Position numbers and translations under genes: made by a program. A stretch of 63,828 bases of DNA, counting the filler, from a bacterium (GTDB lineage: Bacteria; UBP15; UBA6099; JAJRTR01): NCBI GenBank assembly GCA_024278215.1. It is 3 parts of 3 records of this genome, joined end to end, with 100 filler letters (N's around TTAATTAATTAA, not from the genome) between each part and the next. Parts side by side here need not be neighbours in the genome. Positions count along the whole stretch, not along the records: positions 19,220 to 49,043 come from JAJRTR010000045.1; 2 more parts are not named here. One strand, written 5' to 3'. The notes under the pieces were generated by a model that did no database searches, was not told the origin of the DNA, and saw only the letters and a list, made by a program, of their open reading frames with translations. Below are positions 9,190 through 49,143 of the stretch, piece after piece. Every line of letters starts with the position of its first letter. The stretch's first letter is position 1.

Positions 9190-9216
9190 TGCCGACCGGC
9201 AATAGACAGGTCGGCA
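9190..9216 (+). terminator. Hairpin after fprA, possible terminator
   Basis: TGCCGACC...GGTCGGCA inverted repeat just after the stop; no clear U tract. Confidence 0.35.
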
Positions 9217-9469: not shown

Positions 9470-10147
9470 ATGAAAAAGAGAGTTGCAGAGCTTATGCGGT
9501 CGGGTACGCTCGGTTCGATGCTGTGTGAGTTCGAGTCACACCCGGCACGCAAAGTAATCAACGCTCTGTATCCACACTTATGCAGCGGCAATGATGGGAT
9601 AAGATGGGCGGCGATAAAAGCTATGGGTGTCTCGATAGCACGTCTTGCCGCGGAGAACGAGGAGTCCGCGAGGATAATTATGCGGCGGTTTATTTGGAAC
9701 CTGAACGAGGAGTCGGGAGGCGCGGCCTGGGGTGCGCCGGAGTCGATGGCCGAGGCGATGGCGCTTCATGAGGGGTTGGCGGAGAAGTTTGCGCATGTTC
9801 TGGTTTCCTTCATCATGCCCGATGGGCTGTATCTCGATTTTGAACCACTGCTGCGAGGCGCCGTGTGGGGCATAGGAAGGCTGGCGGAGAAAGAGCCCGA
9901 CCGGGTCGGTGATGCTGTGGAATATCTCATACCGTTCCTTTCCGCAGCCGACGCCGGGCTCCGGGGCATGTCGGCGCGTGCGCTTGGCCTGCTGAATGCA
10001 CGCGGCGCTGTGCGCGAACTGGAAGGACTGGCGGGCGACAAGTCGGAAACGACCTTTTTTCTTGGTCGTGAACTTGTGACAAAAGAAGTGGGCGAACTGG
10101 CCTCGGAAGCGCTGTCCGCTATCGGCAGCCGACGTGAAGGACAGTAA
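9470..10147 (+). CDS. HEAT-repeat protein (DVU0298-like family)
   Basis: RRFIWNLNEESGGAAWGAPESMAE signature; LRGAVWGIGRL helical repeats. Confidence 0.8.
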   Translation: MKKRVAELMRSGTLGSMLCEFESHPARKVINALYPHLCSGNDGIRWAAIKAMGVSIARLAAENEESARIIMRRFIWNLNEESGGAAWGAPESMAEAMALHEGLAEKFAHVLVSFIMPDGLYLDFEPLLRGAVWGIGRLAEKEPDRVGDAVEYLIPFLSAADAGLRGMSARALGLLNARGAVRELEGLAGDKSETTFFLGRELVTKEVGELASEALSAIGSRREGQ

Positions 10148-10191
10148 CACTTTGACATAAATCAGGAGTAGAAAAAGGGGGAATAAAAATT

Positions 10192-11535
10192 ATGGATGTT
10201 GTCTTATTGTCACGGTTGCAGTTCGCGGCTGCAACAGCGTTCCACTTTATTTTTGTCCCGCTCACACTGGGGTTGTCGCTGATTATCGCGTTGATGGAAA
10301 CAAAATATGTCCGCACCGGTGATGTGACGTACCAGCGAATGGCGAAGTTCTGGGGAAAAATGTTCCTGATCAATTTCGCTATAGGGATCGTCACGGGGAT
10401 CACACTCGAATTTCAGTTTGGCACGAACTGGTCGCGCTATTCGCAATATGTCGGCGATGTCTTCGGATCGTTACTGGCCATCGAGGCGACCGCGGCGTTT
10501 TTTCTCGAATCGACATTCATCGCAGTATGGGCCTTCGGCTGGAAAAAACTTTCTGCGAAGATGCACGCGCTCACTATATGGCTCGTCACCATCGCGTCGA
10601 GTGTATCGTCGATATGGATAATTATAGCAAATTCATGGATGCAGCATCCGGTAGGATACACGATCCGCAACGGGCGCGCCGAAATGACGGATTTTATGGC
10701 GATAGTCACCCAGAAACTCGCCTGGATGACCATAGCGCACACGCTTTTTGGAGCTTTCATTTTCGCCGGTTTCTTTGTGATGGGCATCAGCGCTTACCAT
10801 CTGCTGCGAAAACAACATCTGGACGTTTTTCGCAAATCGTTCCGGTTCGGGCTTGTGTTCACGACAATATTTGCGTTCGCAATTGTTGTGCAGGGGCACT
10901 TCCATGGAGAGAACGTTTATCACCAGCAGCCTGCTAAACTCGCCGCTATGGAATCATTGTGGGAAACTACCGAAAGTGCGCCGATGTATCTGCTGACGGT
11001 CCCGGATGAAAAGAATGAACGTAACAAAGTAGACCTGTTGCCGATCCCCGGACTCATGAGTCTGCTCGCGACCGGTTCCGCCGATGCCGAACTCAAGGGG
11101 CTGAAGGATTTCCCGAAAGATGAGCGGCCTCCCGTCGCCCTTGTGTTCTACGCATTCCGCCTGATGGTCGCCTGCGGTATGTTTTTCCTGCTGCTTGTCG
11201 CGGTCGGCTGGCTGCTCGGCGACAAAGTCGAGACAAAACCGCTGTATCTCAAGCTGCTGATACTGGCCATACCTTTGCCTAATATAGCGATACAGGCGGG
11301 CTGGATCGTCAAGGAAGTCGGTCGCCAGCCGTGGATAGTATACGGTGTAATGAAAACATCCGAAGCCGTCTCTCCGGTGCCCGCCGTAAATGTCGCAATA
11401 TCGCTTGCGGCTTTTATCCTTGTGTATTCACTGCTCGGAGCGGCGGCGATATTTCTGATATACAAAGCGGCGGTGAACGGACCAGTGCCGCTGCCCGCAG
11501 ACGCGAAAACGGCAGACTCGAAAGGAGGGCGGTAA
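10192..11535 (+). CDS. cydA: Cytochrome bd ubiquinol oxidase subunit I
   Basis: LSRLQFA..FHFIF, EFQFGTNW, QPAKLAAME, EVGRQPW. Confidence 0.97.
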   Translation: MDVVLLSRLQFAAATAFHFIFVPLTLGLSLIIALMETKYVRTGDVTYQRMAKFWGKMFLINFAIGIVTGITLEFQFGTNWSRYSQYVGDVFGSLLAIEATAAFFLESTFIAVWAFGWKKLSAKMHALTIWLVTIASSVSSIWIIIANSWMQHPVGYTIRNGRAEMTDFMAIVTQKLAWMTIAHTLFGAFIFAGFFVMGISAYHLLRKQHLDVFRKSFRFGLVFTTIFAFAIVVQGHFHGENVYHQQPAKLAAMESLWETTESAPMYLLTVPDEKNERNKVDLLPIPGLMSLLATGSADAELKGLKDFPKDERPPVALVFYAFRLMVACGMFFLLLVAVGWLLGDKVETKPLYLKLLILAIPLPNIAIQAGWIVKEVGRQPWIVYGVMKTSEAVSPVPAVNVAISLAAFILVYSLLGAAAIFLIYKAAVNGPVPLPADAKTADSKGGR

Positions 11536-11538
11536 GCT

Positions 11539-12558
11539 ATGGAAATGATATGGTTTATAATCTGGGGTATACTCTGGTCTGTATACTTTGTCCTCGACGG
11601 CTTCGACCTCGGCATCGGCGCGTTGATCCCGTTTCTGGGCAAAAGTGAAGAAGACCGCCGCGTGATGGTGAACGCCGTTGGGCCTTTCTGGGACGGCAAC
11701 GAAGTCTGGCTCATCACAGCGGGCGGTGTGACGTTCGCCGCGTTCCCTACGGCATACGCGGTAATGTTCAGCACACTCTATTCACCGCTACTGCTGCTCC
11801 TGTTCGCCCTGATTTTCAGGGGCGTCAGTCTCGAATTCAGGCACCATGTCGACAGTCCCGGCTGGCGCGCGCTCTGGGACAGGTGTTTCTTCCTCGGCAG
11901 CGCGTTGCCCGCAATACTGCTCGGCGTTGCGTTCGCCAACATATTTAAGGGTATCCCTTTCGACAGCGAATATGTTTTTCACGGCACGATCCTCACGCTG
12001 CTTAATCCATACGGACTGCTCGGCGGTGCGCTGTTCCTGCTTCTGTTCGTAGTCCACGGCAGTCTCTGGCTCGCGACAAAATCAGACGGCGACCTGCAAA
12101 AACGCGCGGGCCGCGCGGCATCGGGCGTGTGGCTGGTTCTCCTTATTATCGCGGTCGTCTTCCTGGTCGCCACATGGTTCAAGACCGGTCTTTACGACAA
12201 TTATCTGGATCACCCCGCGCTGTTCATCATACCGCTGCTTGCAGTAGCCGGTCTCGTTCTGACACGCATTTACATAGCTGCCGCCGCATGGCTCAAAGCC
12301 TGGTTCGCGTCGGCGCTCACAATATTCGCCTGCGCCATGTTCGGCATAATCGGACTCTATCCGAACATATTCCCGTCGAGCCTGGACCCCGCGATCAGCC
12401 TTACTGTCCTGAATGCTTCATCCAGCCCGCTCACACTTAAAATCATGCTCGGCGTGGTCCTGATATTCGTTCCCATAGTTATCGCATATCAGACCTGGGT
12501 GTATTTCCTTTTCAAAGGTGTTCCCGATCATGATGAATCCGGGCACGGCGCGTATTGA
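11539..12558 (+). CDS. cydB: Cytochrome bd ubiquinol oxidase subunit II
   Basis: LDGFDLG, PFWDGNEVWLI; directly follows cydA. Confidence 0.97.
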   Translation: MEMIWFIIWGILWSVYFVLDGFDLGIGALIPFLGKSEEDRRVMVNAVGPFWDGNEVWLITAGGVTFAAFPTAYAVMFSTLYSPLLLLLFALIFRGVSLEFRHHVDSPGWRALWDRCFFLGSALPAILLGVAFANIFKGIPFDSEYVFHGTILTLLNPYGLLGGALFLLLFVVHGSLWLATKSDGDLQKRAGRAASGVWLVLLIIAVVFLVATWFKTGLYDNYLDHPALFIIPLLAVAGLVLTRIYIAAAAWLKAWFASALTIFACAMFGIIGLYPNIFPSSLDPAISLTVLNASSSPLTLKIMLGVVLIFVPIVIAYQTWVYFLFKGVPDHDESGHGAY

Positions 12559-19119: not shown

Positions 19120-19219
19120 NNNNNNNNNNNNNNNNNNNNNNNNNNNNNNNNNNNNNNNNNNNNTTAATTAATTAANNNNNNNNNNNNNNNNNNNNNNNNN
19201 NNNNNNNNNNNNNNNNNNN
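19120..19219. other. Artificial contig linker
   Basis: N run containing TTAATTAATTAA (stops in all six frames). Confidence 0.97.
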
Positions 19220-31563: not shown

Positions 31564-32733
31564 ATGGTAGACGATGTTATCAATGAAGTTAATGCTAAGA
31601 TTCGCAGCTATACGAACGAGCACGTGACAGAATGGAAGAACAGCGGCAGGCCTGTCATCGGCTATTTCTGCCACTATATGCCGGCGGAACTCATACTCGC
31701 CGCCGGTGCGCTGCCACTGAGGCTCAGGGGCGCGGGCTCGGAGGATTCGTCCGCAGGCGACGCATTCATGAGCGGCCGTGTCTGCACGTATGTCAGGCAC
31801 GTGATGAGCCTTGCCGTCGAGGGCGATTACGACTTTCTTGATGGTGAGATATGCCTCAACACTTGCGACCATGTGCGACGAGCCGCCGATCTTTTCGTTA
31901 AAAAAACAAACATCCCTTTTCACGGCTTCATCTCGCTTCCGCGCAACCCACGCGAAAGTCTGTATGGCAACCTGCTCAAAGAACTACGCAATCTGCGCGT
32001 CGCTCTACAGGATCATTTCGGTGTTGAAATCACCGATGATCGTCTCCGCGAAGCAATCATTGCGCTGAACAGGAACAGGCGGTTGCTTACTGAAATAAAT
32101 AATATGCGAAAAGAAGACAAACCGAAACTTTCCGGTGCGGAATCGCTTTCTGTGCATATCGCTTCGCAGGTTTTGCCGCCCGATGTTTTCGCTGGAATCG
32201 CCGAGCGTTTGATTAAAGAACTTAAAGACAGACCCGGTCTGGATTCGCCACGCGGCAGGCTTGTGATGCTGGGCGCGGAACTCGACGAACCCGACTATGT
32301 CGCGGTCATCGAGAGCCAGGGCGCGCTCGTCGTCGCCGACCTGCTGTGTTTTGGTCAGCGTTCAGTGCTCGACCCCATCGACGAAAACACGGACGACCCG
32401 CTCGATGCGATAGGACGGGCCTACTTCTTCAGACCGTCCTGCGCGAGAATGATAGGCGACTTCCCCGCAAGATGGGACAACCTTAACCGGATCGTAAGCG
32501 ACGCGCGTGCGGACGGTGTTATATTCACACGTCTCCTTTTCTGCGACCCATGGGGCGCGGAACAACATAACCTGCTGCACCGCGCGAAAAAAGGGAACAC
32601 ATTTCCTGTGCTTACACTTACAAAAGAATACGGCATCGTGCCTACCGGCCAGTTGCGGACACGTGTGCAGGCGTTTCTGGAAAAAATCGAAATTGCTCGT
32701 GCAAAAAGAGACGCAGTTGGAGGTGCTGTGTGA
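31564..32733 (+). CDS. 2-hydroxyacyl-CoA dehydratase/benzoyl-CoA reductase family subunit (beta/FldC/BcrC-like) 1
   Basis: GYFCHYMPAEL, CTYVR, TCDHVRR, SCARM, FCDPW, GQLRTRVQAFLE. Confidence 0.9.
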   Translation: MVDDVINEVNAKIRSYTNEHVTEWKNSGRPVIGYFCHYMPAELILAAGALPLRLRGAGSEDSSAGDAFMSGRVCTYVRHVMSLAVEGDYDFLDGEICLNTCDHVRRAADLFVKKTNIPFHGFISLPRNPRESLYGNLLKELRNLRVALQDHFGVEITDDRLREAIIALNRNRRLLTEINNMRKEDKPKLSGAESLSVHIASQVLPPDVFAGIAERLIKELKDRPGLDSPRGRLVMLGAELDEPDYVAVIESQGALVVADLLCFGQRSVLDPIDENTDDPLDAIGRAYFFRPSCARMIGDFPARWDNLNRIVSDARADGVIFTRLLFCDPWGAEQHNLLHRAKKGNTFPVLTLTKEYGIVPTGQLRTRVQAFLEKIEIARAKRDAVGGAV

Positions 32734-34046
32734 CAGTTGACGAGATGGTTGGCAAACCCGAGTGGCGCAGCATCCTCGAGTCGCTGCCGGTGATAAAGAG
32801 ATTTTTCGAAGGCGACCCCGACAGCCACGGCATAAACGCGCTTATGCGTGGAATGTCTATCTATCTGGAAAAACTCGTCGATAATCTCGAACGCGAAAAC
32901 CCTGCCGTGTGGTATAACCTCGGTTTCAATTCAGAACTCATATACGCGCTGGACGGCGGCGCGGCGGCCCTGCCTATCGAGGCGCTCGGCGTGATGCACA
33001 ATCTGCTCGGCGACATTAAAATATCGATGGATTTTATTGACACGGCGCAGGCCGAAGGTGTGCCGTCCGACTGCTGCTCGGCCGACAAACTCGCTATCGG
33101 CACTCTCCACAGGGGACTCTATCCGAAACCCGCTTGCACTGTCGGCATAAACACGCCGTGCGATTCGCAGGTGATGGCGACACAGGTGATGGCGGAAATG
33201 TCGGATGCTCCTTTTTTCGTTGTGGATGTACCCTATTATCATAATGATGAAACTGTACGGCAGGTGGCGGCGCAACTCGAAGAACTTATTCCGTTTCTCG
33301 AAGAAAACACTGGTCGCAGGATCGATTTCGACAGGCTGCGCGAGGTTTGCGAACTCTCGAATAAGATGACCGAGAATATATGGGAATGGCTCGAATGGCG
33401 AAAAAACACGCCGCTTGCGCAGTCGAGTAAACTTGTGGCGTTCACTCTTATACTTCAGATTCTTTTCGCGGGCACACAGGAAGGTGTCGACATTACGGAA
33501 GGTCTCAAACGCGAAGCACTCGAACGCACCGAACGCGGTGAGAGGTTCTTCGAGGAGCGTGTACGCGCTGTATGGTATCAGGACCCCGTGTGGACGGACA
33601 TGCAGATGTACGACTGGTTCGAGCACGAACTGGGGCTTACTGTGCCGATTGATGTTTTCGGCTACTATGCCAACGAAGGACTCATCGACACATCGACACG
33701 CGAAACGATGATCTACGGGCTTGCGCGAAAGATTGCAAACTGTCATCCGATGGCACGCCAGTTCAGGAGCAACATCGACGTATATATCCGCGACTTTATG
33801 CACATGCTCGAATCGTGGAACGCCGACTGCTGTATATTCGCGGGGCATATAGCGTGCAAACACGCATGGGGCGGTATCGGCTTGTTTAAAGAAGCGTGCC
33901 GACGGGCGGATGTGCCGCTGCTCGTGTTCGAGTTCGACATGTTCGATCCGCGAATCACATCCTACGACGATGTGTATTTCGAGGTTGACCGCTTTGTCAA
34001 TGAAATTGTTTATCCACGCAAGCTTAGAGCAGGAAAGGCGGGTTGA
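32730..34046 (+). CDS. 2-hydroxyacyl-CoA dehydratase family subunit (alpha/FldB/BcrB-like) 1
   Basis: EGVPSDCCS, PCDSQ, DVPY, GHIACKH, EFDMFDPR; GTGA overlap. Confidence 0.88.
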   Translation: MTVDEMVGKPEWRSILESLPVIKRFFEGDPDSHGINALMRGMSIYLEKLVDNLERENPAVWYNLGFNSELIYALDGGAAALPIEALGVMHNLLGDIKISMDFIDTAQAEGVPSDCCSADKLAIGTLHRGLYPKPACTVGINTPCDSQVMATQVMAEMSDAPFFVVDVPYYHNDETVRQVAAQLEELIPFLEENTGRRIDFDRLREVCELSNKMTENIWEWLEWRKNTPLAQSSKLVAFTLILQILFAGTQEGVDITEGLKREALERTERGERFFEERVRAVWYQDPVWTDMQMYDWFEHELGLTVPIDVFGYYANEGLIDTSTRETMIYGLARKIANCHPMARQFRSNIDVYIRDFMHMLESWNADCCIFAGHIACKHAWGGIGLFKEACRRADVPLLVFEFDMFDPRITSYDDVYFEVDRFVNEIVYPRKLRAGKAG

Positions 34047-34056
34047 AAGAGGTGCG

Positions 34057-34857
34057 ATGGCTGTAACAGCAGGAGTTGATATCGGATCGACGGCGTCGAA
34101 AGCCGTCGTGCTTATAGATGGAAAAACCGCAGGACAGATCATAGGGCCGAGTTCGACAAATCCCAAGCGAACCGCCCGCGAGATATATAACAGTGCGCTC
34201 GATCATGCAGGCGTTTCCGCTGCTGATGTCGCTTATGTCGTCGGCACGGGTTATGGCCGCACACAGGTCGAGTTCGCGGATAAAAATGTTTCGGAAATAA
34301 CGTGCCACGGACGAGGCGCGCATTTCCTGTGTCCCACTGCGCGTACGGTGATCGACATAGGCGGACAGGACACGAAGGCAGTGTGCATCGACTCGGAAGG
34401 CAATCTGCTCGACTTTGTTATGAACGACAAATGCGCGGCTGGTACCGGCCGTTTTCTCGAAGCTATGGCGCGCTCGATGGAACTGCCTGTCGAGGAGATG
34501 GGACAGCACTACTTCACCGGCGGCGATCCATGCACGATCACGAGCATGTGCAGCGTGTTCGCCGAAAGCGAGGTCATCAACCTGATAAACGACGGAGTGG
34601 AACTTCCCCGAATCGTCAAGGGACTCCTGCTGTCGCTCGCTGTGCGCGTTTCGTCGCTCGCGCGGCGACTGGGCATTATCGAGGATGTTGTGATGACGGG
34701 CGGTGTGGCAAAGAATAAGGGCGTTTACGATGCGATTGAAAAGAAACTCAAGATAAAAATGAAAAGTTTCGGTGACACTGATCCGCAACTTGTGGGCGCG
34801 CTGGGAGCTGCGCTTGTCGCCGCCGACTTCGCGGGGGCAGGCACAGTAAGTGGATAA
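34057..34857 (+). CDS. ATP-dependent acyl-CoA dehydratase activase (HgdC/BcrA-D family, ASKHA) 1
   Basis: GVDIGSTASK, TGYGR, EITCH, DIGGQDTK, MNDKCAAGTG, CSVFAESE, GALGAA. Confidence 0.95.
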   Translation: MAVTAGVDIGSTASKAVVLIDGKTAGQIIGPSSTNPKRTAREIYNSALDHAGVSAADVAYVVGTGYGRTQVEFADKNVSEITCHGRGAHFLCPTARTVIDIGGQDTKAVCIDSEGNLLDFVMNDKCAAGTGRFLEAMARSMELPVEEMGQHYFTGGDPCTITSMCSVFAESEVINLINDGVELPRIVKGLLLSLAVRVSSLARRLGIIEDVVMTGGVAKNKGVYDAIEKKLKIKMKSFGDTDPQLVGALGAALVAADFAGAGTVSG

Positions 34858-34878
34858 TGTGAATGTTCGGAATCTTAT

Positions 34879-35691
34879 ATGAATGAAACCGCCGAATCAA
34901 CAATGAATATCAGCGGTGACAACATTCGCTGCGCAATCGCGGGTGATATGGAACCGCTCATTATGCGTGTCAGGACGTTCTTGCAGAACACATTATCACA
35001 ATCATTGTCATCTGAAGCGATCGACTATGAAACGCTTCGCCGGACATTCGGTTACTCTCGCAGTAAGAAGAAAACGGCGGAAGTCATTATCGGCGGCGAC
35101 ATCGGACTCGAACTCGGACATCCGTCTACAGAATCGTTATGTTTCGTTCTGACAACTACAAAAGCGGAGCTTGTTGCTGATGGCCTGATTACCGTCATAG
35201 GGCCGGATGCGGGAAATATAATAACAAAGGAAAAGCGTCCTTTCGCGCAGGTGATAATGGTCGCAACTGAATCCGGAGCGGACATCGACCCATTTTCGCT
35301 GGACAGCGCGCAATATCTGATGCAGAGGCTGGACGGCTATATGGTCAGGTCGGTGCCGGGCAGACTATGGTCGCGTTTAAGCAGGAAGTGTATGGCTGAC
35401 GGACTCGATCTTCATGTTGTCGGCTCTGCGCTTGCAGATTTTTTCAAACACGAATTCGCCGGTGTGTCAAAAGCGGAGATACTTTTCGTCACATCCAGTG
35501 CGGAAGATGTGCTTTCACTTAAACCGATCGAAACCGAGGCTTCGATACTTGCGGGAAAACACAAAAAACTTTTCCTCGGACTGGACGGAGTTGTGGAATG
35601 CAGCGAGTTGAATTGTGAAGTATGCGACGAAAAACCTGTGTGCGACAGCCTCAGGGACATTGTAGTTAAACGGAGGCGAATAAAACGATGA
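34879..35691 (+). CDS. Acetyl-CoA synthase (AcsB/CdhC) middle-domain-like protein with C-terminal Cys cluster
   Basis: LELGHP, DGLITVIGPD, LWSRLSR, G..L...FK.EF; ends C-x4-C-x2-C-x5-C; no A-cluster domain. Confidence 0.7.
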   Translation: MNETAESTMNISGDNIRCAIAGDMEPLIMRVRTFLQNTLSQSLSSEAIDYETLRRTFGYSRSKKKTAEVIIGGDIGLELGHPSTESLCFVLTTTKAELVADGLITVIGPDAGNIITKEKRPFAQVIMVATESGADIDPFSLDSAQYLMQRLDGYMVRSVPGRLWSRLSRKCMADGLDLHVVGSALADFFKHEFAGVSKAEILFVTSSAEDVLSLKPIETEASILAGKHKKLFLGLDGVVECSELNCEVCDEKPVCDSLRDIVVKRRRIKR

Positions 35692-36350
35692 GCACGGAAA
35701 CACTTTCAAGGCCGTTGATACTGTCATCATTCTACATGCGGCTGGCTTCGATGGAGGAAATAGTCAGAATCGTGCTTTCCGAAGCGGAACTCAGCGCGCT
35801 GCTGACTTTCAGGGGCGCGCCCGAAAAGAAAGTGCTGCTGGACTACAGGCGGCGGCCTGCCCGCCTGGAGGTTGACGGACCGGAGAAATCAGCGAATATA
35901 TTTTTGACTATCGATGCCGATATCATGCACGAGGTGATGCTTGATCGTGTAAAACCGGGGGTCGCGCTTGCGCATCGCGAAATGCTGCTGAGGGGCAGCG
36001 CGTGCGATCTTGCAAAATTCATTCAATTACTCGAATTCGGCCCCATGCTGTACGACGAACATGCCGCGGATATCGGACTTGAAGGCTTCGCGAGATATAA
36101 AAACAACAGTCTCCTTTCGGAGGAACAACTTATGAACGAAAAGACATTTGAAGGTAACCCGATACCTGTTGTTAAGGTCTCGGCGGGCGAGAAGGCCGCA
36201 ACAGGCATAATAAACAGGCTTGGCTATGCTGTCGGCTATGCGCTCGGAGTACTGCGGTACAGGCTGCTGAAAAAACTCAGCCTGTTCGAGGTTCTGACAT
36301 GGATGTCGAAGGGGCTCGAGGCCGCACGTCCTGAAAGACCGAAGGAATAA
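35688..36350 (+). CDS. SCP2-like lipid/sterol-binding domain protein with C-terminal extension
   Basis: ANIFLTIDADIMHEVMLDRVKPGVALAHREMLLRGS resembles the SCP2 core; ATGA overlap. Confidence 0.55.
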   Translation: MSTETLSRPLILSSFYMRLASMEEIVRIVLSEAELSALLTFRGAPEKKVLLDYRRRPARLEVDGPEKSANIFLTIDADIMHEVMLDRVKPGVALAHREMLLRGSACDLAKFIQLLEFGPMLYDEHAADIGLEGFARYKNNSLLSEEQLMNEKTFEGNPIPVVKVSAGEKAATGIINRLGYAVGYALGVLRYRLLKKLSLFEVLTWMSKGLEAARPERPKE

Positions 36351-37135
36351 TGCCATCAGGAAACAGTAACAACAAACCTGTAGTCGCTGTGTGCGGCAAG
36401 GGCGGCGTCGGTAAAACAGTTTTCTGTGCACTGTTCGCAAAAGCGCTTGTTGAAGCGGGTTGGGTGCCGATGCTTCTCGTGGATGCCGACCCTGTGGGTG
36501 GACTCATCAGGGCTATCGGCGAAACCGTGAAGAAAACTATTGCATCGGCGCGCAGCGAACTTATCGCTTCGGCGAGAAATGCCGGTGCTGAAGATAAAAG
36601 CAGGATAGCGCGGCAACTCGATTATTACTTGCTCGAAACCCTTGAGGAGCGCGACAGCTACTCGATGCTCGCTATAGGCAGGTCGCCCGAAAAAGGATGT
36701 TTCTGCCCCGCGAACACGCTGTTGCGCGAAGCGATAAACGCTGTCGCAGAGCCGTTCGCTTTTGTGCTCATAGACGCCGAGGCCGGTGTAGAACAGATAA
36801 AAAGAGAAGTGACGAGAAATGTTACGGACATAATTGTAGTGCATGACGGCTCGATGCGTAGCGCGGAGGCACTCGAGTATATAGCGGACCTTGCGGGCGG
36901 CATTCGCACATTCTCTGTAGCGAACAGAAGTGAAGAAGGCAATAATATAGAGCTCCCTGCCTGTGTTCGTATGCTTGGCCATGTGCCTGAAGATGAAGAC
37001 GTGAGAGACTATGACCGCGCGGGCCGCCCTTTATGGGAATTGCCGAATGACAACTATGCAACGAATGCGGTAAGGAACATACAGAAGAACTATTCAGAGT
37101 TTACAGTGGAAACGCAACATGAGCCGAGTGAGTGA
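36350..37135 (+). CDS. cooC: CooC/AcsF-type nickel-insertion ATPase
   Basis: GKGGVGKT, VDADP, GCFCP.N (CxC Ni motif), DAEAGVE. Confidence 0.85.
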   Translation: MPSGNSNNKPVVAVCGKGGVGKTVFCALFAKALVEAGWVPMLLVDADPVGGLIRAIGETVKKTIASARSELIASARNAGAEDKSRIARQLDYYLLETLEERDSYSMLAIGRSPEKGCFCPANTLLREAINAVAEPFAFVLIDAEAGVEQIKREVTRNVTDIIVVHDGSMRSAEALEYIADLAGGIRTFSVANRSEEGNNIELPACVRMLGHVPEDEDVRDYDRAGRPLWELPNDNYATNAVRNIQKNYSEFTVETQHEPSE

Positions 37136-38246
37136 GACAGGTTTCTCCGGACTGCTCGATCTGCCGTTGAACCGGCTCGTCGATAAAGCACGCGACGAGG
37201 GCGGCAGGATAATCGGGTATACTTGCAGCTATGTGCCCGAGCCGCTTATCAGTGTCGACGGCCTCGTCCCTATCCGTATGCGCGCGCCGGGTGTCTCAGG
37301 CACACCGCTCGCTGATACCTACATGTCAAGTGTTATCTGTTCGTACACACGCAGCATACTCGAATTCGCCCTCGACGGCTTCTACAACGAACTCGACGGA
37401 TGGGTTTTTACCGCGAGTTGCGACCATCTGCGACGCCTGTACGATAACCTTTCATATCTCGAAAACCCACCCTTCAATTACATGATCGACCTGCCACATA
37501 AGATTAGCGAGCCGGCGATAAGCTGGTTCCACGAAGAACTTAAACTACTCGCGGGAGCGCTCTCCGCCGACTTCGGCGTCGACACCGGACCGGACGCTCT
37601 GCGAAATGCTATTGCCAAACTGAACAGTTTCAATGCGATCCTTCGTGAGATCGGCGAGATGCGAAAAGAAGACACACCTCCAATATCCGGTCGCGACTTC
37701 CACGAGATCGTGGCTGCCTGCGCGTCTTCACCAAAGTACTTGCTGAAAGATAAAATATGCAAATATCACGAGTCACTGAAACGCAACGACGGAACAGATG
37801 ATTACAGGGCGCGGCTGATGCTGGTAGGCAGCCAGTTGGACGACCCCGAATATATCAGCGTAATTGAATCTGTAGGCGGACTTGTAGTCGCCGACCGCTG
37901 CTGCCTTGGCTCATTCCCCGGCCTTGCGCACATCGAATGCGGCACTGACCCGCTCCGCTCGCTCGCCGAACACTATCTCGCCAAAACTTCCTGCCCGCGC
38001 ATGATGGAGGAGTTCGACAGCAGGATTGAAAACATTATCGGTATTGCGCGTGAATACCGCGTCGATGGAATAATTATCGAGACGATGAAATTCTGCGACT
38101 GCTGGGGCGTGGACTCCGGACTGCTGGTATCGGCACTCCGCGACCGTAATATACCGGTGCTCCGGCTCGAACGGGAATACTCGCTTTCCGGCGAAGGACA
38201 GATACGCACGCGTGTGCAGGCATTCATCGAAAGCATGGGCAAATAG
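37119..38246 (+). CDS. 2-hydroxyacyl-CoA dehydratase family subunit (beta-like) 2
   Basis: GYTCSYVPE, CSYTR, SCDHLRR, SCPRM, FCDCW, GQIRTRVQAFIE. Confidence 0.9.
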   Translation: MSRVSETGFSGLLDLPLNRLVDKARDEGGRIIGYTCSYVPEPLISVDGLVPIRMRAPGVSGTPLADTYMSSVICSYTRSILEFALDGFYNELDGWVFTASCDHLRRLYDNLSYLENPPFNYMIDLPHKISEPAISWFHEELKLLAGALSADFGVDTGPDALRNAIAKLNSFNAILREIGEMRKEDTPPISGRDFHEIVAACASSPKYLLKDKICKYHESLKRNDGTDDYRARLMLVGSQLDDPEYISVIESVGGLVVADRCCLGSFPGLAHIECGTDPLRSLAEHYLAKTSCPRMMEEFDSRIENIIGIAREYRVDGIIIETMKFCDCWGVDSGLLVSALRDRNIPVLRLEREYSLSGEGQIRTRVQAFIESMGK

Positions 38247-38250
38247 ATAT

Positions 38251-39687
38251 ATGGCAACAAATAAATTCAGCGCACAATGGCTGGTGGATAATGCCGTTCG
38301 CGGTACCTACTGGCTCGAAAACTGGCTGAAAATCGGCTGGCTCGGCGGCAAAAGAGGTCCGTTCTTTATCCGCAGCAAGCTCGAGCAGTTCCCATGGATG
38401 TGGAACATCATGCGCGCCAACCAACTGCTGAATATGGTCACCCGCACACGCAGTGGCCCTTATCTCGAAGCCAACGCCGTGGTGATCACGAATCTTGTGG
38501 GAAGCATTATGGAAATGGTGGACGGGATATTCGCGAGAAAAAGCGATACTGTACTGCATGAAGACCTTGTGCCGCCGGAGATTCTGTATGGTATGGGACT
38601 GAATCCATGGATGGCCGAGTTTCTCGGCATCGTCGTCCCGCTGATAAACCAGACCACGATGGAACATTACATAGATGTTGCCGAGAACGAGGGCATCCCG
38701 CCCGACGTGTGCAGTTTGCCGAAAAGCACCATGGGCCTCGCGCTCGAACATGAACTCCCTGATCCGGTTGCGATAATTTCGTCCAATATGCCTTGTGACG
38801 GCGGCATGAATTCTTACTCGCTGATCGAACAACAATACGATGCGCCCGCATACAGACTCGATGTTCCCTACGACTTCTATAACGAACGTGCAATAGACTA
38901 CTTCGTCGGCGAACTGGCTCGCATGATCGACTGGCTCGAACAGAACACGCCCGGCCGCATGGACTGGAACCGCATGCGCGGCGTGTGCGAGGAACGCAAC
39001 AGGTATGTCGAACTCGAACTCGACCTGTGGGATATGGTACACGAGGTGCCCGCGCCTATGGCTGCCGAGCCGATATACCTGACGCATCTTATGTTCGGCA
39101 TCGCGCAGCCGGGCCACCCGCGCGGCACTCGCACTATGCAGCGTGTGATCGACCTCGCTTCGAAGATCAGACACAAAGGCGGCGGCGCGTTCGGCGACGA
39201 ACGCTACAGGGTGATACTCTGGAATCCGCCTACCCTTATATTTCAGGACATTTTTGTGTGGGCCGAGCAGGCTTACGGCGTTGCGATGGTTATGGACATG
39301 CTTACTTATCATCGTCATCCATATATCGACACATCAACGCCGGAGTCTATGTTGCGCGGCATCGCCCATTGCATGATGCAAGGTCCTATGGCGCGACACA
39401 CACGCGGACCGGCGGAGAACTTTTTCAGCGATCTTTTCGATATTTACGAGCGGTTCAACGCCGATATGATATGGATGGCGGGCCACATCGGCTGCAAAAA
39501 CACACAGGCGCTCAACGGCATGTTCCGCGAGAAATGCCGTGAACGCGGCATACCGTTGCTGTTCATCGACTACGACCTTTCCGACACTCGCATCGTTCCG
39601 CCTGAAGGCATTCGACGTCAGATCGAGCAGTTTATGGAAACCGTGATGAATGCGGAGCGGCTCGATTCCGGCAGGGAGGATGATTGA
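38251..39687 (+). CDS. 2-hydroxyacyl-CoA dehydratase family subunit (alpha-like) 2
   Basis: EGIPPDVCS, PCDGG, LDVPY, GHIGCKN, DYDLSDTR. Confidence 0.88.
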   Translation: MATNKFSAQWLVDNAVRGTYWLENWLKIGWLGGKRGPFFIRSKLEQFPWMWNIMRANQLLNMVTRTRSGPYLEANAVVITNLVGSIMEMVDGIFARKSDTVLHEDLVPPEILYGMGLNPWMAEFLGIVVPLINQTTMEHYIDVAENEGIPPDVCSLPKSTMGLALEHELPDPVAIISSNMPCDGGMNSYSLIEQQYDAPAYRLDVPYDFYNERAIDYFVGELARMIDWLEQNTPGRMDWNRMRGVCEERNRYVELELDLWDMVHEVPAPMAAEPIYLTHLMFGIAQPGHPRGTRTMQRVIDLASKIRHKGGGAFGDERYRVILWNPPTLIFQDIFVWAEQAYGVAMVMDMLTYHRHPYIDTSTPESMLRGIAHCMMQGPMARHTRGPAENFFSDLFDIYERFNADMIWMAGHIGCKNTQALNGMFREKCRERGIPLLFIDYDLSDTRIVPPEGIRRQIEQFMETVMNAERLDSGREDD

Positions 39688-39689
39688 TA

Positions 39690-40481
39690 ATGACGGCTTA
39701 TTTCGGCGGCTGCGATGTTGGCTCGACAACCGGCAAGTCCGTGATCCTTAAAGACGGCGAGATCGTCGCCGACGCAATTATCAAAAGCAGGATCGATCCT
39801 GAAGAAACCGCCAGGCTCGTCATGGCTGATGCAGTGTCGAAAACCGGTGGTATCGACCGTGTCGAGGACATTGCATACCTTGTCGGCACGGGTTACGGCA
39901 GGAACGAAGTCCCGTTCGCGAATGAAAATATTTCCGAGATCACCTGCCACTCCGTGGGAGCGCATTTCTGCGATCGGAAAATACGCACGATAATAGACAT
40001 CGGAGGGCAGGACGTAAAAGCAATATCCGTTAGAGACGATGGCTCGGTGCTCGAATTCGCGATGAACGACAAGTGCGCGGCCGGCACAGGGAAGTTCTTC
40101 GAAGCCATGAGCAGGACATTCGATATGAGCATCGAAGACTTCTCCAGGTTGCCGCTGAAGGCAAACAGACTGGTGCCGGTCACGGCCCAGTGCAGCGTGT
40201 TCGCGGAGACGGAAGTGGTAAGCCTCATAAGCAGAAAAAAGCCGCCCGCCGACATTGCGGCAGGCATACACGCGGCGGTAGCCAAACGCTGCTACACACT
40301 CGCGCGCCGTGTCGGCGTGCGTCCGAAGGTTACGATGACAGGCGGCTGCGCAAAAAATGCCGGTCTTATGCAGGCTCTGGAAAAAGTACTGCATTCGGAA
40401 GTCACGAGACTTGACTACGATCCGCAACTTGTCGGCGCACTCGGCGCGGCTGTCCTGGCGATGCGAAAATGCGACAGGTGA
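39690..40481 (+). CDS. ATP-dependent acyl-CoA dehydratase activase 2
   Basis: GCDVGSTTGK, EITCH, DIGGQDVK, MNDKCAAGTG, CSVFAETE; GGAGG RBS. Confidence 0.95.
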   Translation: MTAYFGGCDVGSTTGKSVILKDGEIVADAIIKSRIDPEETARLVMADAVSKTGGIDRVEDIAYLVGTGYGRNEVPFANENISEITCHSVGAHFCDRKIRTIIDIGGQDVKAISVRDDGSVLEFAMNDKCAAGTGKFFEAMSRTFDMSIEDFSRLPLKANRLVPVTAQCSVFAETEVVSLISRKKPPADIAAGIHAAVAKRCYTLARRVGVRPKVTMTGGCAKNAGLMQALEKVLHSEVTRLDYDPQLVGALGAAVLAMRKCDR

Positions 40482-40527
40482 CACAGAGCAACCCATATTA
40501 TGATGAACGCCGGAGCGTTCAATCCAT

Positions 40528-40583
40528 GCGTTCCCACCGGAGGGCACGGTGGGAACGGGGAGTACGGTGGGAACGATGGGAAC
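40528..40583. repeat. REP-like palindrome with tandem TGGGAAC units
   Basis: CGTTCCCACCG...CGGTGGGAACG hairpin plus two further TGGGAAC copies. Confidence 0.5.
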
Positions 40584-40659
40584 ATTTTTGCACTGCACAC
40601 ATATCGTGTTTGAACAATAACACCATACCTCTTTGCTATTTGGTGTGGGTAGAGAGCAG

Positions 40660-40725
40660 CACAGGCGAGACGCCCGTGCCTCCGAAAGATGATGTTATAT
40701 ATGTAGCACAGGCGTCTCGCCTGTG
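40660..40725. repeat. Inverted pair of GTAG-type REP sequences
   Basis: CACAGGCGAGACGCCCGTG and GTAGCACAGGCGTCTCGCCTGTG. Confidence 0.7.
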
Positions 40726-40809
40726 ACAAATGAAAGTTGCGTTGTAGTGTTAATATGTAGCAATAAAAAACAGATATACTGCAACAAAATGCAACTAATC
40801 GGAGCTAAA

Positions 40810-42156
40810 ATGAAAACGATACACAAAAAAGCAGACATCGTAATAGCAGGTTCGGGGCCGGGCGGCGCGACAGTGGCCTGCAAACTCGCGCGTGCAGGCA
40901 AAAAAGTATTGCTGCTCGAGAAGGGCCGCGATATCAAGTTCCTCGGCAATCACCTGACGGGACTTCTGATATCCGATAAGTTGGGCCTCAACTTCAGCGA
41001 AGAGGGCCTTAATATCGTTCGCGCTATTGTAACCGGCGGCTCGACGATAATGTATTGCGGCGCGGCAACACCACCACCAGACTACATAAAAACAAAATAT
41101 AAAATCGACCTGGACAAGTATGTGAACGAAACGATTGACGAACTCGATCTGAACCCCCTGCCTGATGAGATCATAGGCAAAGCGGGCCTGCGTATAATGG
41201 AAGCCGGCAATGAACTCGGCTATGAGTTTGAAAGAATGCGTAAATTCATCAATCCCGATAAATGCAGGTCTGTGTGCGGCGGCACTTGCATGATGGGCTG
41301 CCCGAGAGGCGCGAAATGGAGCGCTCGCGAATATATCAAGGAGATGCAGGCGGCGGGCGGAGAACTCGTCGTGCGCGCCGACGTGCAGCATGTGAAAATT
41401 GAAGACGGCGTGGCGACAGGAATGCTGGCGCACATCCCCGGCGGTTTCCTGGACGTGGACGCGGATGTTGTGGTTGTATCGGCAGGCGGCGTGGGAACCC
41501 CCTGCATACTTCAGAAATCGGGTCTGCACGAAGCAGGCCGGGGTATGTTCGTCGATCCGCTGGTCTTCGTCACCGGTGTGGCAAAAGACAGGGGCACATG
41601 TCTCGGTCCGCCCATGTCAGTCGGCACCTATAAAATGAACGAAGAAGGCATCGTGCTTTCAGACCTGATCGATCCGCTCTGGATGTGGGTGATTATGGCG
41701 GCGCTCAAGAACACGTCGAAGGTGCTCGACTTTCTCAAATACAGGCGTCAGTACGGCATAATGGTGAAGATAGGGGACGACCGGCAGGGTTTTGTAACAA
41801 TGGACGGCAGGATATCAAAACCGTTGACGGAACGCGACAGGTACAGGCTGAACCGCGGCGCGTCAATATCTCGCGAAATCCTTATAAAAGCCGGCTGCAA
41901 CTCGAAGTCCATCATCGTCGGACCTGTGCGCGGCGCACACCCGGGCTCGACAGCGCGAGTAGGAGAAGTGGTGGATACAAACCTCCAGACCAGGGTTAAG
42001 AATCTCTTTGTTTCCGACGCATCCGTCATACCCGAAGCGCTCGACCGCCCTGTGGTACTCACGATGATAAGCCTCGCAAAACGGCTCTCCGACCACTTGA
42101 TCGAAAATGTGTTTGGAAATGGTGGAATATCGTCAAAAATCGAGGAGAAACAATAG
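40810..42156 (+). CDS. GMC family FAD oxidoreductase
   Basis: GSGPGG, LLEKG, GGST, C..C..C..GC motif, SAGGVGTP, AHPGST, DASVIP. Confidence 0.9.
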   Translation: MKTIHKKADIVIAGSGPGGATVACKLARAGKKVLLLEKGRDIKFLGNHLTGLLISDKLGLNFSEEGLNIVRAIVTGGSTIMYCGAATPPPDYIKTKYKIDLDKYVNETIDELDLNPLPDEIIGKAGLRIMEAGNELGYEFERMRKFINPDKCRSVCGGTCMMGCPRGAKWSAREYIKEMQAAGGELVVRADVQHVKIEDGVATGMLAHIPGGFLDVDADVVVVSAGGVGTPCILQKSGLHEAGRGMFVDPLVFVTGVAKDRGTCLGPPMSVGTYKMNEEGIVLSDLIDPLWMWVIMAALKNTSKVLDFLKYRRQYGIMVKIGDDRQGFVTMDGRISKPLTERDRYRLNRGASISREILIKAGCNSKSIIVGPVRGAHPGSTARVGEVVDTNLQTRVKNLFVSDASVIPEALDRPVVLTMISLAKRLSDHLIENVFGNGGISSKIEEKQ

Positions 42157-42208
42157 AGTCAATTGCAAGCGACTCTATATTGTGCAACCGGCGAATCAAC
42201 CGGTGCAA

Positions 42209-42475
42209 CTACATCTTTTCGAGCGCAAGTTCCGTCGCGCCTTCCTGCACCATCGCTATCAGATCGTTAAGAAAATCTTCGTCTTTTTTAAGGTAAATCA
42301 TTATCTGTTGGGCCGCATCCTTATCGCCACCATTGCTTTTCATTATTCTCACAACTTCTTTCGGCAACTTCTTCCTTTTTATCATGCCTTTCCTGTAAAG
42401 CATAATAAAACCATTAACCCATGTGAAAAACTCGTTAACCGAAAGGATATGTCCGTCAATCTTATATTGCGACAT
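42209..42475 (-). CDS. Hypothetical protein (88 aa)
   Basis: GGGGG RBS; sigma-28-like promoter upstream; fills an intergenic gap. Confidence 0.65.
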   Translation of the reverse strand: MSQYKIDGHILSVNEFFTWVNGFIMLYRKGMIKRKKLPKEVVRIMKSNGGDKDAAQQIMIYLKKDEDFLNDLIAMVQEGATELALEKM

Positions 42476-42507
42476 AACAGCCCCCGTATACTATTGATCC
42501 AATTGCT

Positions 42508-42534
42508 CTATCGGCTTAAATATGCTCAACATTA
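42508..42534 (-). promoter_or_regulatory. Sigma-28-like promoter
   Basis: TAAT-N15-GCCGATAG. Confidence 0.5.
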
Positions 42535-42606
42535 TTATACCCTGTCTGCTTGTTTTTCATGTCGATGTGATTGAAATTACATAAAAAACCGGTCCGCAAC
42601 ATCGGG

Positions 42607-49043: not shown

Positions 49044-49143
49044 NNNNNNNNNNNNNNNNNNNNNNNNNNNNNNNNNNNNNNNNNNNNTTAATTAATTAAN
49101 NNNNNNNNNNNNNNNNNNNNNNNNNNNNNNNNNNNNNNNNNNN
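49044..49143. other. Artificial contig linker
   Basis: N run with TTAATTAATTAA. Confidence 0.97.

Follow-up and report, generated by a model that had tools for sequence, protein, structure and literature searches.

A predicted archerase branch whose gene clusters combine BzdNO-like catalytic subunits with an acetyl-CoA synthase-like protein and a CooC-type ATPase

Enzymes of the benzoyl-coenzyme A (CoA) reductase (BCR)/2-hydroxyacyl-CoA dehydratase (HAD)/double-cubane cluster protein (DCCP) superfamily, or ‘archerases’, catalyze some of the most strongly reducing reactions in biology, including aromatic ring reduction and ketyl-radical dehydration, and to our knowledge few substrates are known for this large superfamily. 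The present analysis concerns a nine-gene cluster at positions 31564-40481 of a 63,828-nucleotide stretch of bacterial DNA (hereafter the window; genome assembly GCA_024278215.1), in which two archerase-type gene sets enclose genes for an acetyl-CoA synthase (ACS)-like protein, referred to as ACSl, an SCP2-like protein and a CooC-like ATPase. The locus probably represents an undescribed branch of BCR/DCCP-type ATP-dependent reductases acting on hydrophobic acyl-CoA esters, with ACSl as a CoA-binding Fe-S subunit. This reading is carried by the conserved cluster-ligand cysteines of the catalytic subunits, the fold and conserved residues of ACSl, and the recurrence of ACSl beside HGD-D and activase genes in other genomes and in metagenomes.

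ACS has AcsF as its Ni-insertion partner. Excerpts of the respective reports describe the protein features needed for the comparison below. In the class I BCR, BzdN holds an [8Fe-9S] double cubane through Cys36/73/100/263/293/327, and BzdO holds a [4Fe-4S] cluster through Cys95/128/380, with a water molecule on the fourth iron (PMC11971306). PlsA and Ger are HGD-D/activase enzymes that turn phospholipid ester bonds into (vinyl) ethers (PMC13159169). In ACS, acetyl-CoA binds mainly to the A2 domain, where its adenine stacks on Trp405 and its diphosphate faces a Lys/Arg patch, and Arg383 and His386 are proposed as acetyl-transfer residues (bioRxiv 10.1101/2024.08.05.606187). No description of HGD-D and activase genes together with an ACS-like or CooC-like gene was found in open-access papers and bioRxiv, subscription journals lying outside this coverage; the system thus still appears to be undescribed, as supposed in a first-pass annotation of the same DNA.

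Open reading frame (ORF) calling and searches against Pfam and NCBIfam reproduce the nine plus-strand genes of that annotation, with the same order and coordinates. The genes and the oxidoreductase gene that follows them are as follows.

31564-32733, plus strand: B1, beta subunit of module 1; 389 aa; Pfam HGD-D, 255.8 bits
32730-34046, plus strand: A1, alpha subunit of module 1; 438 aa; HGD-D, 184.6 bits
34057-34857, plus strand: Act1, ASKHA ‘archerase’ ATPase (activase); BcrAD_BadFG, 208.4 bits; TIGR00241, 254.1 bits
34903-35691 (alternative start 34879), plus strand: ACSl, the ACS-like protein; 262 aa; PF03598 CdhC, 48 bits (cut-off 24)
35688-36350, plus strand: SCP2-like protein; 220 aa; no Pfam or NCBIfam match; SCP2 fold
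36350-37135, plus strand: CooC/AcsF-type P-loop ATPase; 261 aa; weak CbiA, ParA and MinD matches
37119-38246, plus strand: B2, beta subunit of module 2; 375 aa; HGD-D, 293.3 bits
38251-39687, plus strand: A2, alpha subunit of module 2; 478 aa from ATG 38251; HGD-D, 205.8 bits
39684-40481, plus strand: Act2, activase of module 2; 265 aa; BcrAD_BadFG, 183.8 bits; TIGR00241, 238.9 bits
40810-42156, plus strand: GMC-type FAD oxidoreductase; GMC_oxred_N, 55.4 bits (cut-off 23); GMC_oxred_C, 31.6 bits (cut-off 24.6)

The junctions from B1 to Act2 measure -4, +10, +21 or +45, -4, -1, -17, +4 and -4 nt (minus denoting overlap). Act1 starts at ATG 34057 with GAAAGAGGTG just upstream, and the reading frame of A2 is open already from 38212, upstream of its ATG.

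Catalytic subunits and their partner proteins

The cluster ligands were compared in an alignment of the window subunits with those from 35 related loci, matches covering less than 70% of the query being dropped. The six Cys of B1 (C36, C74, C101, C262, C293 and C327) fall at the [8Fe-9S] ligand positions of BzdN and are invariant in 36/36 beta subunits; B2 carries the same six. The alpha Cys C116, C144 and C376 (A1 numbering) are kept in 36/36, 36/36 and 35/36 sequences, and match the [4Fe-4S] ligands of BzdO. Judged from these sequences, the beta subunits should carry an [8Fe-9S] double-cubane cluster, and A1, whose three Cys would bind a [4Fe-4S] cluster with an open iron site, is presumably the subunit that takes the substrate. 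An equivalence between an invariant alpha Glu69 and BzdO Glu65 was considered and dropped, the numbering offset of the alignment not supporting it.

Among solved structures (PDB phmmer), the best relative of B1 is BzdN (8s02_B, E 2.2e-40), followed by DCCP, MbdN and HadC, and that of A1 is BzdO (8s02_A, E 5.6e-10), followed by HadB. Scores against the curated NCBIfam models lie below the cut-offs throughout: for B1, 188.1 bits against a cut-off of 350 for double_cubane (NF040772), 149.2 against 453.8 for bzdN, 116 against 421 for BcrC and 96 against 700 for HadC; for B2, 172.8 against 350 for double_cubane and 119.9 against 453.8 for bzdN; for A1, 51.7 against 448.6 for bzdO and 43.3 against 750 for HadB. 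A2 reaches 58.1 bits for double_cubane and 42.1 bits for HadB, both far under the cut-offs, and has no bzdO match. On the HadB and HadC models together, the catalytic subunits score 43.3, 95.8, 107.8 and 42.1 bits against cut-offs of 750 and 700, and the top-scoring models of B1 and B2 are those of DCCP and BzdN, not HadC. The subunits thus lie outside every curated Bzd, Bcr, Had and DCCP model, a placement drawn from curated hidden Markov model and PDB phmmer scores, not from a tree of named references. By contrast with these subunit models, the activase domain cut-off (TIGR00241, CoA_E_activ, 125.4 bits) is passed by both Act1 and Act2.

Identities between the modules are low (B1/B2 37%, A1/A2 29%, Act1/Act2 45%; alpha versus beta 23%), and in a tree of 29 beta subunits the B1-type and B2-type sequences form separate clades (support 98/98 and 92/94), so that the two modules appear to be old paralogues of a distinct clade. 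For the ACSl-linked betas, monophyly (support 83/67) is only tentative: the two outgroup sequences, unrelated HGD-D betas from this genome, have very long branches that join each other. By sequence, this clade has a BzdNO-like cluster architecture, but neither the active-site residues of BzdNO nor its two-subunit ATPase.

These features bear on a different assignment, in which the modules would be redox-neutral radical dehydratases or isomerases of the 2-hydroxyacyl-CoA dehydratase type, acting on hydroxylated hydrophobic acyl-CoAs, with the activase only priming the enzyme. Such chemistry is unlikely. Each module does have one homodimer-type activase, like Had, Hgd and Fld and unlike Bzd and Bcr with their two different ATPase subunits, but a distant form of the cluster has two activase genes (L030-L035 and L104). 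The alpha subunit scores about equally on HadB and BzdO, and BzdO His131 is not kept, yet the betas, which score best on the DCCP and BzdN models, all bear the six-Cys BzdN/DCCP double-cubane signature, whereas HadC, in the available excerpt, has a three-Cys [4Fe-4S] cluster (PMC7317905). Genes of the linalool dehydratase family, hydratase genes and hydroxysteroid dehydrogenase-like genes near some relatives would also fit dehydration.

For the ACS-like protein, a profile built from 24 homologues matches only acetyl-CoA synthases in the PDB (ACS residues 330-481, E 2.4e-14). The AlphaFold model (mean predicted local distance difference test, pLDDT, 86) superposes residues 40/41-219/221 on ACS residues 316/319-490/493 with Z 19.8-20.4 and a root-mean-square deviation (rmsd) of 2.1-2.2 A over 171-172 residues (VIA-align), the best unrelated chain reaching Z 3.1, and the structural matches end at ACS residue ~493-499. 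As modelled, the core of ACSl is the middle, CoA-binding (A2) domain of ACS. ACSl has neither the A1 domain nor the A3 Ni domain (the rest of A3), and full-length ACS models in NCBIfam give 41-50 bits against cut-offs of 356-809. Its tail instead carries E-C-x4-C-x2-C-x5-C-D (C233, C238, C241 and C247), and the protein ends 15 residues further on.

Across 126 sequences, W156 is conserved in 122 and R158 in all, as are C238, C241 and C247, with C233 in 110. Trp405 of ACS sits in a W-V-R-I-S motif, whose counterpart in the profile alignment is W156-x-R158, a match good to +/-1 residue because it is based on alignment and a numbering offset of 22; ACS Arg383 and His386 align with Asn and Gln. The Ni ligands of ACS, which we take to be Cys-Gly-Cys, are not in ACSl, and the C-x2-C-x5-C spacing of its tail presumably resembles the [4Fe-4S] loops of endonuclease III/MutY and WhiB proteins. 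The four-Cys loop most likely binds a [4Fe-4S] cluster, to judge from its motif.

Searched against 1.84 billion representatives of 50% identity clusters, the ACSl profile matches 583 at E <= 0.001, 373 at <= 1e-10 and 118 at <= 1e-30. The family was examined through the best 150 of the 583 matches; among the 149 that were new, 24 shorter than 225 aa were excluded as likely fragments and 125 kept, and the Cys motif lies within the last 70 residues of 109 of these. No fused form was found among proteins of 460-2000 aa, which is weak evidence. Twelve genomes of the host's own family and order contain no ACSl orthologue in a short frame, their seven matches lying in frames as long as true ACS (563-783 aa); the distribution of ACSl is patchy.

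Family scans alone could not have given the labels of the next two proteins, and both labels of the first-pass annotation held once structures were consulted. The CooC-like ATPase has CooC1 of Carboxydothermus hydrogenoformans as its best solved relative (3kje, E 5.5e-8, residues 12-233), with its G-C-F-C aligned to the C-Y-C of CooC1 and a deviant Walker A, GKGGVGKT; among orthologues, GKGGxGK and G-C-[FY]-C are invariant in 25/25. This CooC-type signature is the only pointer to a nickel role of the ATPase, and the proposal of a Ni-modified cluster hinges on it, since ACSl has neither the A-cluster domain nor the Ni ligands.

The SCP2-like protein has no Pfam (E <= 0.01), NCBIfam or PDB sequence match. 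Its AlphaFold model has an overall pLDDT of 77.9, with the residue blocks of 11-120 at 85-97 and mostly above 90, and Foldseek finds 39 PDB matches at E <= 0.001, the listed ones being either SCP2 proteins or alkylsulfatase domains of SCP2 type. Against SCP2 structures, the Foldseek probability is 1.00, with E 1.7e-6 to 1e-3 and target-normalised TM-scores of 0.58-0.71; 1wfr comes first (E 1.7e-6), and UbiJ-SCP2 (6h6o, E 1e-4) is among them. The SCP2 fold (~8-128) is followed by a disordered linker and amphipathic C-terminal helices (166-212). Sixteen orthologues sit immediately 3' of ACSl.

The GMC protein encoded after the nine genes contains C-x3-C-x3-C-x3-C (residues 154-166 of the 450-aa form), a motif that presumably resembles the 3Fe-4S motif of bacterial FAD-glucose dehydrogenase, although the PDB match to that enzyme (6a2u) is confined to the FAD-binding N-terminus. 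The four Cys are kept in 10/10 orthologues, and orthologues of 64-69% identity lie immediately after the cluster in five loci (L011, L015, L021, L023 and L024). The protein counts as part of the conserved gene set and is likely an accessory dehydrogenase or electron-transfer partner.

Recurrence of the gene set and its surroundings

Related loci were retrieved by ACSl similarity alone, 35 from a genome collection and 80 from metagenomes, the metagenome scan being seeded with a distant ACSl subfamily (32-48% identity to the seed). Neighbours were counted only where at least 4 kb was available on both sides of ACSl (22/35 genome and 19/80 metagenome loci). The genes found within 5 kb of ACSl were as follows.

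Alpha and beta subunits: 21/22 genome loci, 18/19 metagenome loci
Activase: 21/22 genome loci, 17/19 metagenome loci
CooC-like ATPase: 15/22 genome loci, 15/19 metagenome loci
SCP2-like protein: 11/22 genome loci, 1/19 metagenome loci
GMC oxidoreductase: 7/22 genome loci, 4/19 metagenome loci

Where enough sequence was present, the immediate upstream neighbour of ACSl is an activase or alpha gene in 21/30 genome and 48/53 metagenome loci, and the immediate downstream neighbour is a CooC-like or SCP2-like gene in 30/34 and 39/46. The middle genes of the cluster thus do accompany HGD-D and activase genes elsewhere. Only two well-flanked loci have no HGD-D or activase gene within 5 kb: in one (L027:6422-8777) ACSl comes after a GMC gene, and in the other (L119:5983-6720) it lies between a LuxR-type regulator and a RecC-like gene.

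The 35 genome loci come from Thermodesulfobacteriota (including Desulfatibacillum alkenivorans DSM 16219), Myxococcota (including Haliangium), one member of the Leptospirales and unclassified metagenome-assembled genomes (MAGs). Read by tblastn with the window proteins, their arrangements comprise B1-A1-Act1-ACSl-SCP2-like (L001-3 and L007), ACSl-CooC-like-B2-A2-Act2 (L004-6, L008, L018 and L026), the full nine-gene form (L010, L016, L020, L022 and L023), forms ending in CooC-like-GMC (L011, L015, L021 and L024) and a distant form, alpha-beta-Act-Act-ACSl-CooC-like (L030-L035). Adjacent activase pairs are limited to the distant forms L030-L035 and L104, and the usual metagenome order is beta-alpha-Act-ACSl-CooC-like or Act-beta-alpha-ACSl-CooC-like. 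A single ACSl is shared by two or three alpha/beta sets in the window and in L010, L016, L020, L022, L023 and L051. The window is the most elaborate form, with two modules on one ACSl plus the SCP2-like and GMC genes, while D. alkenivorans (L008) has a minimal five-gene form made up of ACSl, CooC-like, beta, alpha and activase genes, with module 2 only, one ACSl orthologue and no SCP2-like gene. Because each module occurs singly with its own ACSl in other genomes, an obligatory two-step pathway, which had been one of two suggestions for the double module, is unlikely.

Three ACSl paralogues (460.7, 193 and 95.8 bits) are present, besides an ACS-sized gene, in the Thermodesulfobacteriota MAG G042 that holds locus L001, which suggests several parallel systems in one cell. 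They lie at the following positions of its contigs.

C4:48233-49045
C1:151483-152220
C6:88432-89028

Clues to the substrate come from neighbouring genes. In the window's own subfamily no flanking gene is common across lineages, and TetR, PALP, 2-oxoglutarate dehydrogenase and aldehyde dehydrogenase genes recur beside close relatives only. The flanks of metagenome loci of at least 7 kb were scanned through 132 of 138 unassigned ORFs, the six omitted being from the near-duplicates L052 and L121. Three of these loci (L050, L059 and L068) have thiolase-like, DUF35/ChsH2-OB and acyl-CoA dehydrogenase genes immediately upstream, with a family III CoA-transferase in L059 and an ADP-forming CoA-ligase-like gene in L068. 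Elsewhere there is an AMP-forming ligase immediately upstream (L097), two enoyl-CoA hydratases with an acyl-CoA dehydrogenase and a mutase (L100), and a short-chain dehydrogenase/reductase with thiolase and DUF35 genes (L079). Genes of the linalool dehydratase/isomerase (Ldi) family lie within two clusters (L107:2758-4530 and L114:1120-2934), a hint that some members of the family act on substrates derived from terpenes or alkenes, and 3beta-hydroxysteroid dehydrogenase/epimerase-like genes occur in L055, L082 and L085. In the Leptospirales locus, a START-domain protein (L032:9673-10311) follows the CooC-like gene, at the place of the SCP2-like gene in the window; the vicinity also contains genes for a ferredoxin, two proteins of the nitroreductase family and a GMC protein.

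The flanking genes and the CoA-binding domain of ACSl jointly point to hydrophobic acyl-CoA esters, probably different ones in different paralogues. A hydrophobic CoA ester had been proposed before from the presence of the SCP2 protein, and it stands as plausible, given the SCP2 fold, the START domain in one relative, the CoA-binding domain and the acyl-CoA and terpene gene neighbours.

Much of the same evidence has to be read against a further idea, that what the SCP2-like protein presents as substrate is no CoA ester but a membrane lipid, isoprenoid or quinone, for which PlsA and Ger would be the precedent; such a substrate seems quite improbable. The SCP2 domain followed by amphipathic C-terminal helices is UbiJ-like, but the constant partner of the catalytic subunits is a CoA-binding domain. 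Lipid-related neighbours exist, with START at the SCP2-like position in L032, polyprenyl synthetase upstream in L005 and L008 and BacA after the GMC gene in L023, yet they are few and bound to three lineages, while the distant subfamily is located among acyl-CoA genes. The cluster occurs in Myxococcota and in D. alkenivorans, which the available excerpt describes as an alkyl ether lipid producer, but D. alkenivorans has no SCP2-like gene and, according to the same excerpt, already has a proven Ger (PMC13159169). In favour of the idea, the window's genome, 95% complete, contains no DUF2229-type Ger/PlsA gene; against it, no lipid phenotype is tied to the present genes. A specific link to ether lipids through Ger/PlsA, considered separately, had nothing beyond the host taxa and the missing DUF2229 to recommend it and was demoted to this low-probability alternative.

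The source genome has 4.5 Mb in 207 contigs. Runs of N at 19120-19219 and 49044-49143 are contig joins, and only 19220-49043 is a single contig (29,824 bp), so genes outside this range are not neighbours of the cluster. The remaining part of the contig holds housekeeping genes (RecD2-type helicase, ClpXP, trigger factor and MoxR ATPase). ORFs at 42107-42574 (plus strand) and 39618-40598 (minus strand, antisense to Act2) match no family significantly and are probably not genes.

The spacer between Act2 and the GMC gene measures 328 nt (40482-40809). Within it, a repeat with a 9-nt period (CGGTGGGAAC-like) occurs in four overlapping copies (40538-40583), and an inverted copy lies at 40529-40539. 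There is also a 20-nt inverted repeat (40660-40679/40706-40725; 95% complementary, loop 26 nt). These elements could be a terminator, attenuator or binding site. A promoter and terminator scan yielded no more than shuffled sequence would (promoter-like sites: 17, expected 11.0 +/- 2.7; terminator-like sites: 19, expected 14.1 +/- 3.9), and a look-up of sequencing runs for 31564-40481 listed none.

On a different contig, 258-12558 contains an oxygen and nitrosative stress set comprising peroxiredoxin, flavodoxin, ferritin, hybrid-cluster protein (prismane), rubrerythrin, a flavodiiron-type protein and cytochrome bd oxidase subunits I and II; two large minus-strand ORFs, 5033-6664 and 6661-7902, belong to no Pfam family. 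The same genome has two further HGD-D alpha/beta pairs that lack ACSl, on contigs C154 (L042) and C151 (L043), one with its own activase and a HadB-like alpha (315.6 bits against a cut-off of 750), and the other with a DCCP-like beta (174.8 bits) and no activase within the 13 kb read. A separate ACS-sized gene is also present.

Proposed mechanism and competing explanations

Whether ACSl joins the catalytic subunits was addressed by structure prediction. B1(1-376), A1(30-430) and ACSl(41-262) were folded with their own alignments, the N-terminus of ACSl, whose counterpart is not matched in distant homologues, being trimmed. The complex gave ipSAE values of 0.35, 0.37 and 0.37, compared with 0.00 in three controls and likewise in the control that had the alpha subunit replaced; the runs share at least 50% of contacts, and the partner pLDDT is at least 69. 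In calibration, the same mark was reached by 116/157 solved complexes and 2/215 mismatched pairs, with passing scores <= 0.60 in 18/157 solved complexes and in both passing mismatches, counts that are only rough here because of the own alignments, trimmed chains and three chains. The prediction gives a slight push towards ACSl docking as a subunit in a manner that requires alpha, and thereby weak in-silico support to the multi-subunit complex that was the other suggestion of the first-pass annotation.

The locus may then be pictured as an archerase branch with two paralogous catalytic modules, each comprising a BzdN-like beta subunit predicted to bear an [8Fe-9S] cluster, a BzdO/HadB-like alpha subunit predicted to hold a [4Fe-4S] cluster with its free iron towards the substrate, and a homodimeric ASKHA ATPase. 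Gene content, ligand conservation, folds and recurrent neighbourhoods are observations, from which the cluster types, CoA binding, complex formation, the course of the chemistry and the substrate class are deduced. By analogy with BzdNOPQ and DCCP, the ATPase would accept an electron from a low-potential donor and drive it to the double cubane by ATP hydrolysis, from where it would pass to the alpha cluster and reduce the thioester-conjugated part of the acyl-CoA by ketyl-radical chemistry, dehydration being less likely than reduction. ACSl would be a shared subunit on alpha, in which W156 and R158 hold the ADP end of the CoA substrate, and might pass electrons on or gate them. The CooC-type ATPase would serve in the maturation of a metal site, the foremost candidate being the Cys loop of ACSl. 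Optional helpers would be SCP2/START carriers, with the SCP2-like protein delivering the hydrophobic substrate, and the GMC-type Fe-S flavoprotein, which would either supply electrons or act as oxidant of a neighbouring group.

Several points weigh against this picture. The acid/base His131 of BzdO corresponds to Gln147 in A1 (by sequence alignment) and to Gly in A2, after C-D-G, and the context of the third alpha Cys is H-x2-C-K compared with N-x2-C-E in BzdO; with these surroundings changed, the chemistry may differ from Birch-type reduction. The reductase assignment itself is an inference from the six-Cys beta, which leaves room for a dehydratase. The equation of W156 with Trp405 comes from motif alignment and the numbering offset of 22 between two PDB entries, not from superposition. 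The predicted complex is a weak pass, and a pass of this kind proves wrong more often than right, except where the guess was already likely. The CooC-like gene is absent from 7/22 and 4/19 well-flanked loci, and the SCP2-like gene is restricted to one subfamily. Family scans of the contig (19220-49043) found no CoA ligase, CoA transferase or beta-oxidation gene, and the earlier statement that no ligase or transferase is adjacent is borne out for its whole length. Finally, BzdNO made in Escherichia coli takes up iron (10.9 Fe per BzdNO), with no dedicated maturase named in the available excerpt (PMC11971306), so a CooC-type factor is not generally needed for such clusters.

The last point bears equally on a competing explanation, in which ACSl and the CooC-type ATPase would be assembly factors, a scaffold and an ATP-driven carrier, building or repairing the double-cubane or alpha cluster, by analogy with NifH in P-cluster maturation and with Mrp/NBP35-type Fe-S carriers. 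We consider this improbable, though not negligibly so. The ATPase belongs to the MinD/Mrp/CooC class and has weak matches to NUBPL/ParA iron-transfer and MrpORP models, and ACSl and the CooC-like gene form the most constant adjacent pair, but ACSl occurs with no CooC-like gene nearby in 7/22 and 4/19 well-flanked loci. A single ACSl for several alpha/beta sets is as expected for a shared maturase; its Trp and Arg at the CoA site, kept in 122/126 and 126/126 sequences, have no obvious use in an Fe-S scaffold. The weak docking signal, moreover, required alpha and not the double-cubane beta alone, and BzdNO gains its iron in E. coli.

A bolder variant would have ACSl and the CooC-type ATPase form a ‘mini acetyl-CoA synthase’, whose Ni- or hetero-metal Cys4 centre is charged by the double-cubane reductase, the A2 domain placing a thioester or thiol beside the Cys4-bound Ni/Fe-S centre. 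This is a long shot. If true, it would represent a new Ni-Fe-S enzyme class performing low-potential thioester chemistry on lipid-, terpenoid- or hydrocarbon-derived acyl-CoAs, for example the reductive making or breaking of C-S or C-C bonds, and would go beyond a variant of benzoyl-CoA reductase.

For the favoured reading, a CoA-ester reductase with ACSl as a subunit, the wider meaning would be as follows. The branch is widespread, with 373 ACSl clusters at E <= 1e-10, usually accompanied by the CooC-type ATPase. If ACSl is a true subunit, it would provide a new mode of CoA-substrate recognition or electron gating in archerases, and evolution would have put the ACS/AcsF pair to use a second time, away from the Wood-Ljungdahl pathway. 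The SCP2, START, linalool-dehydratase-family and thiolase/DUF35/acyl-CoA dehydrogenase neighbours would suggest a part for the branch in how sulfate reducers and anaerobic Myxococcota turn over hydrophobic compounds under anaerobic conditions. As the cultured D. alkenivorans DSM 16219 has the minimal five-gene form, this can be put to a direct test.

Comparison with known systems

The Bzd class I BCR (BzdNOPQ of Aromatoleum sp. CIB; 8S02/8S1T/8S2R) shares with the locus an HGD-D alpha/beta pair with an ASKHA ATPase, and the six BzdN and three BzdO cluster Cys are common to both, those of BzdN at near-identical residue numbers. By contrast, the subunits of the locus miss the equivalog cut-offs (149 against 454 and 52 against 449 bits), each module has one activase gene where Bzd has BzdP and BzdQ, and the locus has neither BzdO His131 nor benzoyl-CoA pathway genes nearby. 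Counterparts of the ACSl, CooC-like, SCP2-like and GMC partners are not mentioned for BCR in the available excerpt (PMC11971306).

DCCP and its reductase DCCP-R (C. hydrogenoformans CHY_0487/0488, 6ENO; E. coli YjiM/YjiL) resemble the locus in pairing a six-Cys double-cubane signature with just one ASKHA reductase of the homodimer type. In DCCP, one gene with a 7-Cys motif encodes both halves of a homodimer, and the excerpt describing it mentions no ACS-like or CooC-like partner (PMC7317905), whereas the locus encodes an alpha/beta heterodimer; no counterpart of the seventh Cys is seen in the B1 sequence, and the best score on the DCCP model NF040772, 188.1 bits, does not reach the cut-off of 350. 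The dehydratases HadBC/HadI, HgdAB/HgdC and FldBC/FldI (3O3M) have, like the locus, a heterodimer with one homodimeric activator gene, a three-Cys alpha [4Fe-4S] cluster with an open iron and a TIGR00241 activase, but HadC is described, in the excerpt, with a single [4Fe-4S] cluster (PMC7317905), and the betas of the locus have six Cys.

UbiJ and UbiT have, like the SCP2-like protein, an N-terminal SCP2 domain with C-terminal helices, and UbiJ-SCP2 structures (6H6O/6H6N/6H6P) are among the fold matches. These presumably accessory, lipid-presenting proteins of a soluble enzyme complex have no detectable sequence similarity to the SCP2-like protein, and their partner enzymes are unrelated. PlsA/PlsR and Ger share HGD-D and BcrAD_BadFG domains, hydrophobic lipid substrates and anaerobic hosts, including D. 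alkenivorans, but according to the available excerpt they are fused multi-domain proteins with DUF2229 (PF09989), and no ACS-like or CooC-like partner is mentioned there (PMC13159169); PF09989 is absent from the proteins of the cluster and has no match in the whole genome. The isoprene reductase operon of Acetobacterium (PMC10134865), also considered, was set aside as a different enzyme family with HypA/HypB, and is relevant solely as a precedent when Ni chaperones are proposed next to unusual reductases.

ACS (AcsB/CdhC) is the counterpart of ACSl. Its A2 domain superposes on ACSl with Z ~20, both have the adenine-stacking Trp motif, and A3 starts at the position where the Cys-rich segment of ACSl begins. 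ACS has ~730 aa with A1 and A3, whereas ACSl has 262 aa and neither of these; ACS has carbon monoxide dehydrogenase and the corrinoid iron-sulfur protein as neighbours, and ACSl has HGD-D reductases. As ACS pairs with the Ni-insertase AcsF, so ACSl pairs with a CooC/AcsF-type CxC ATPase.

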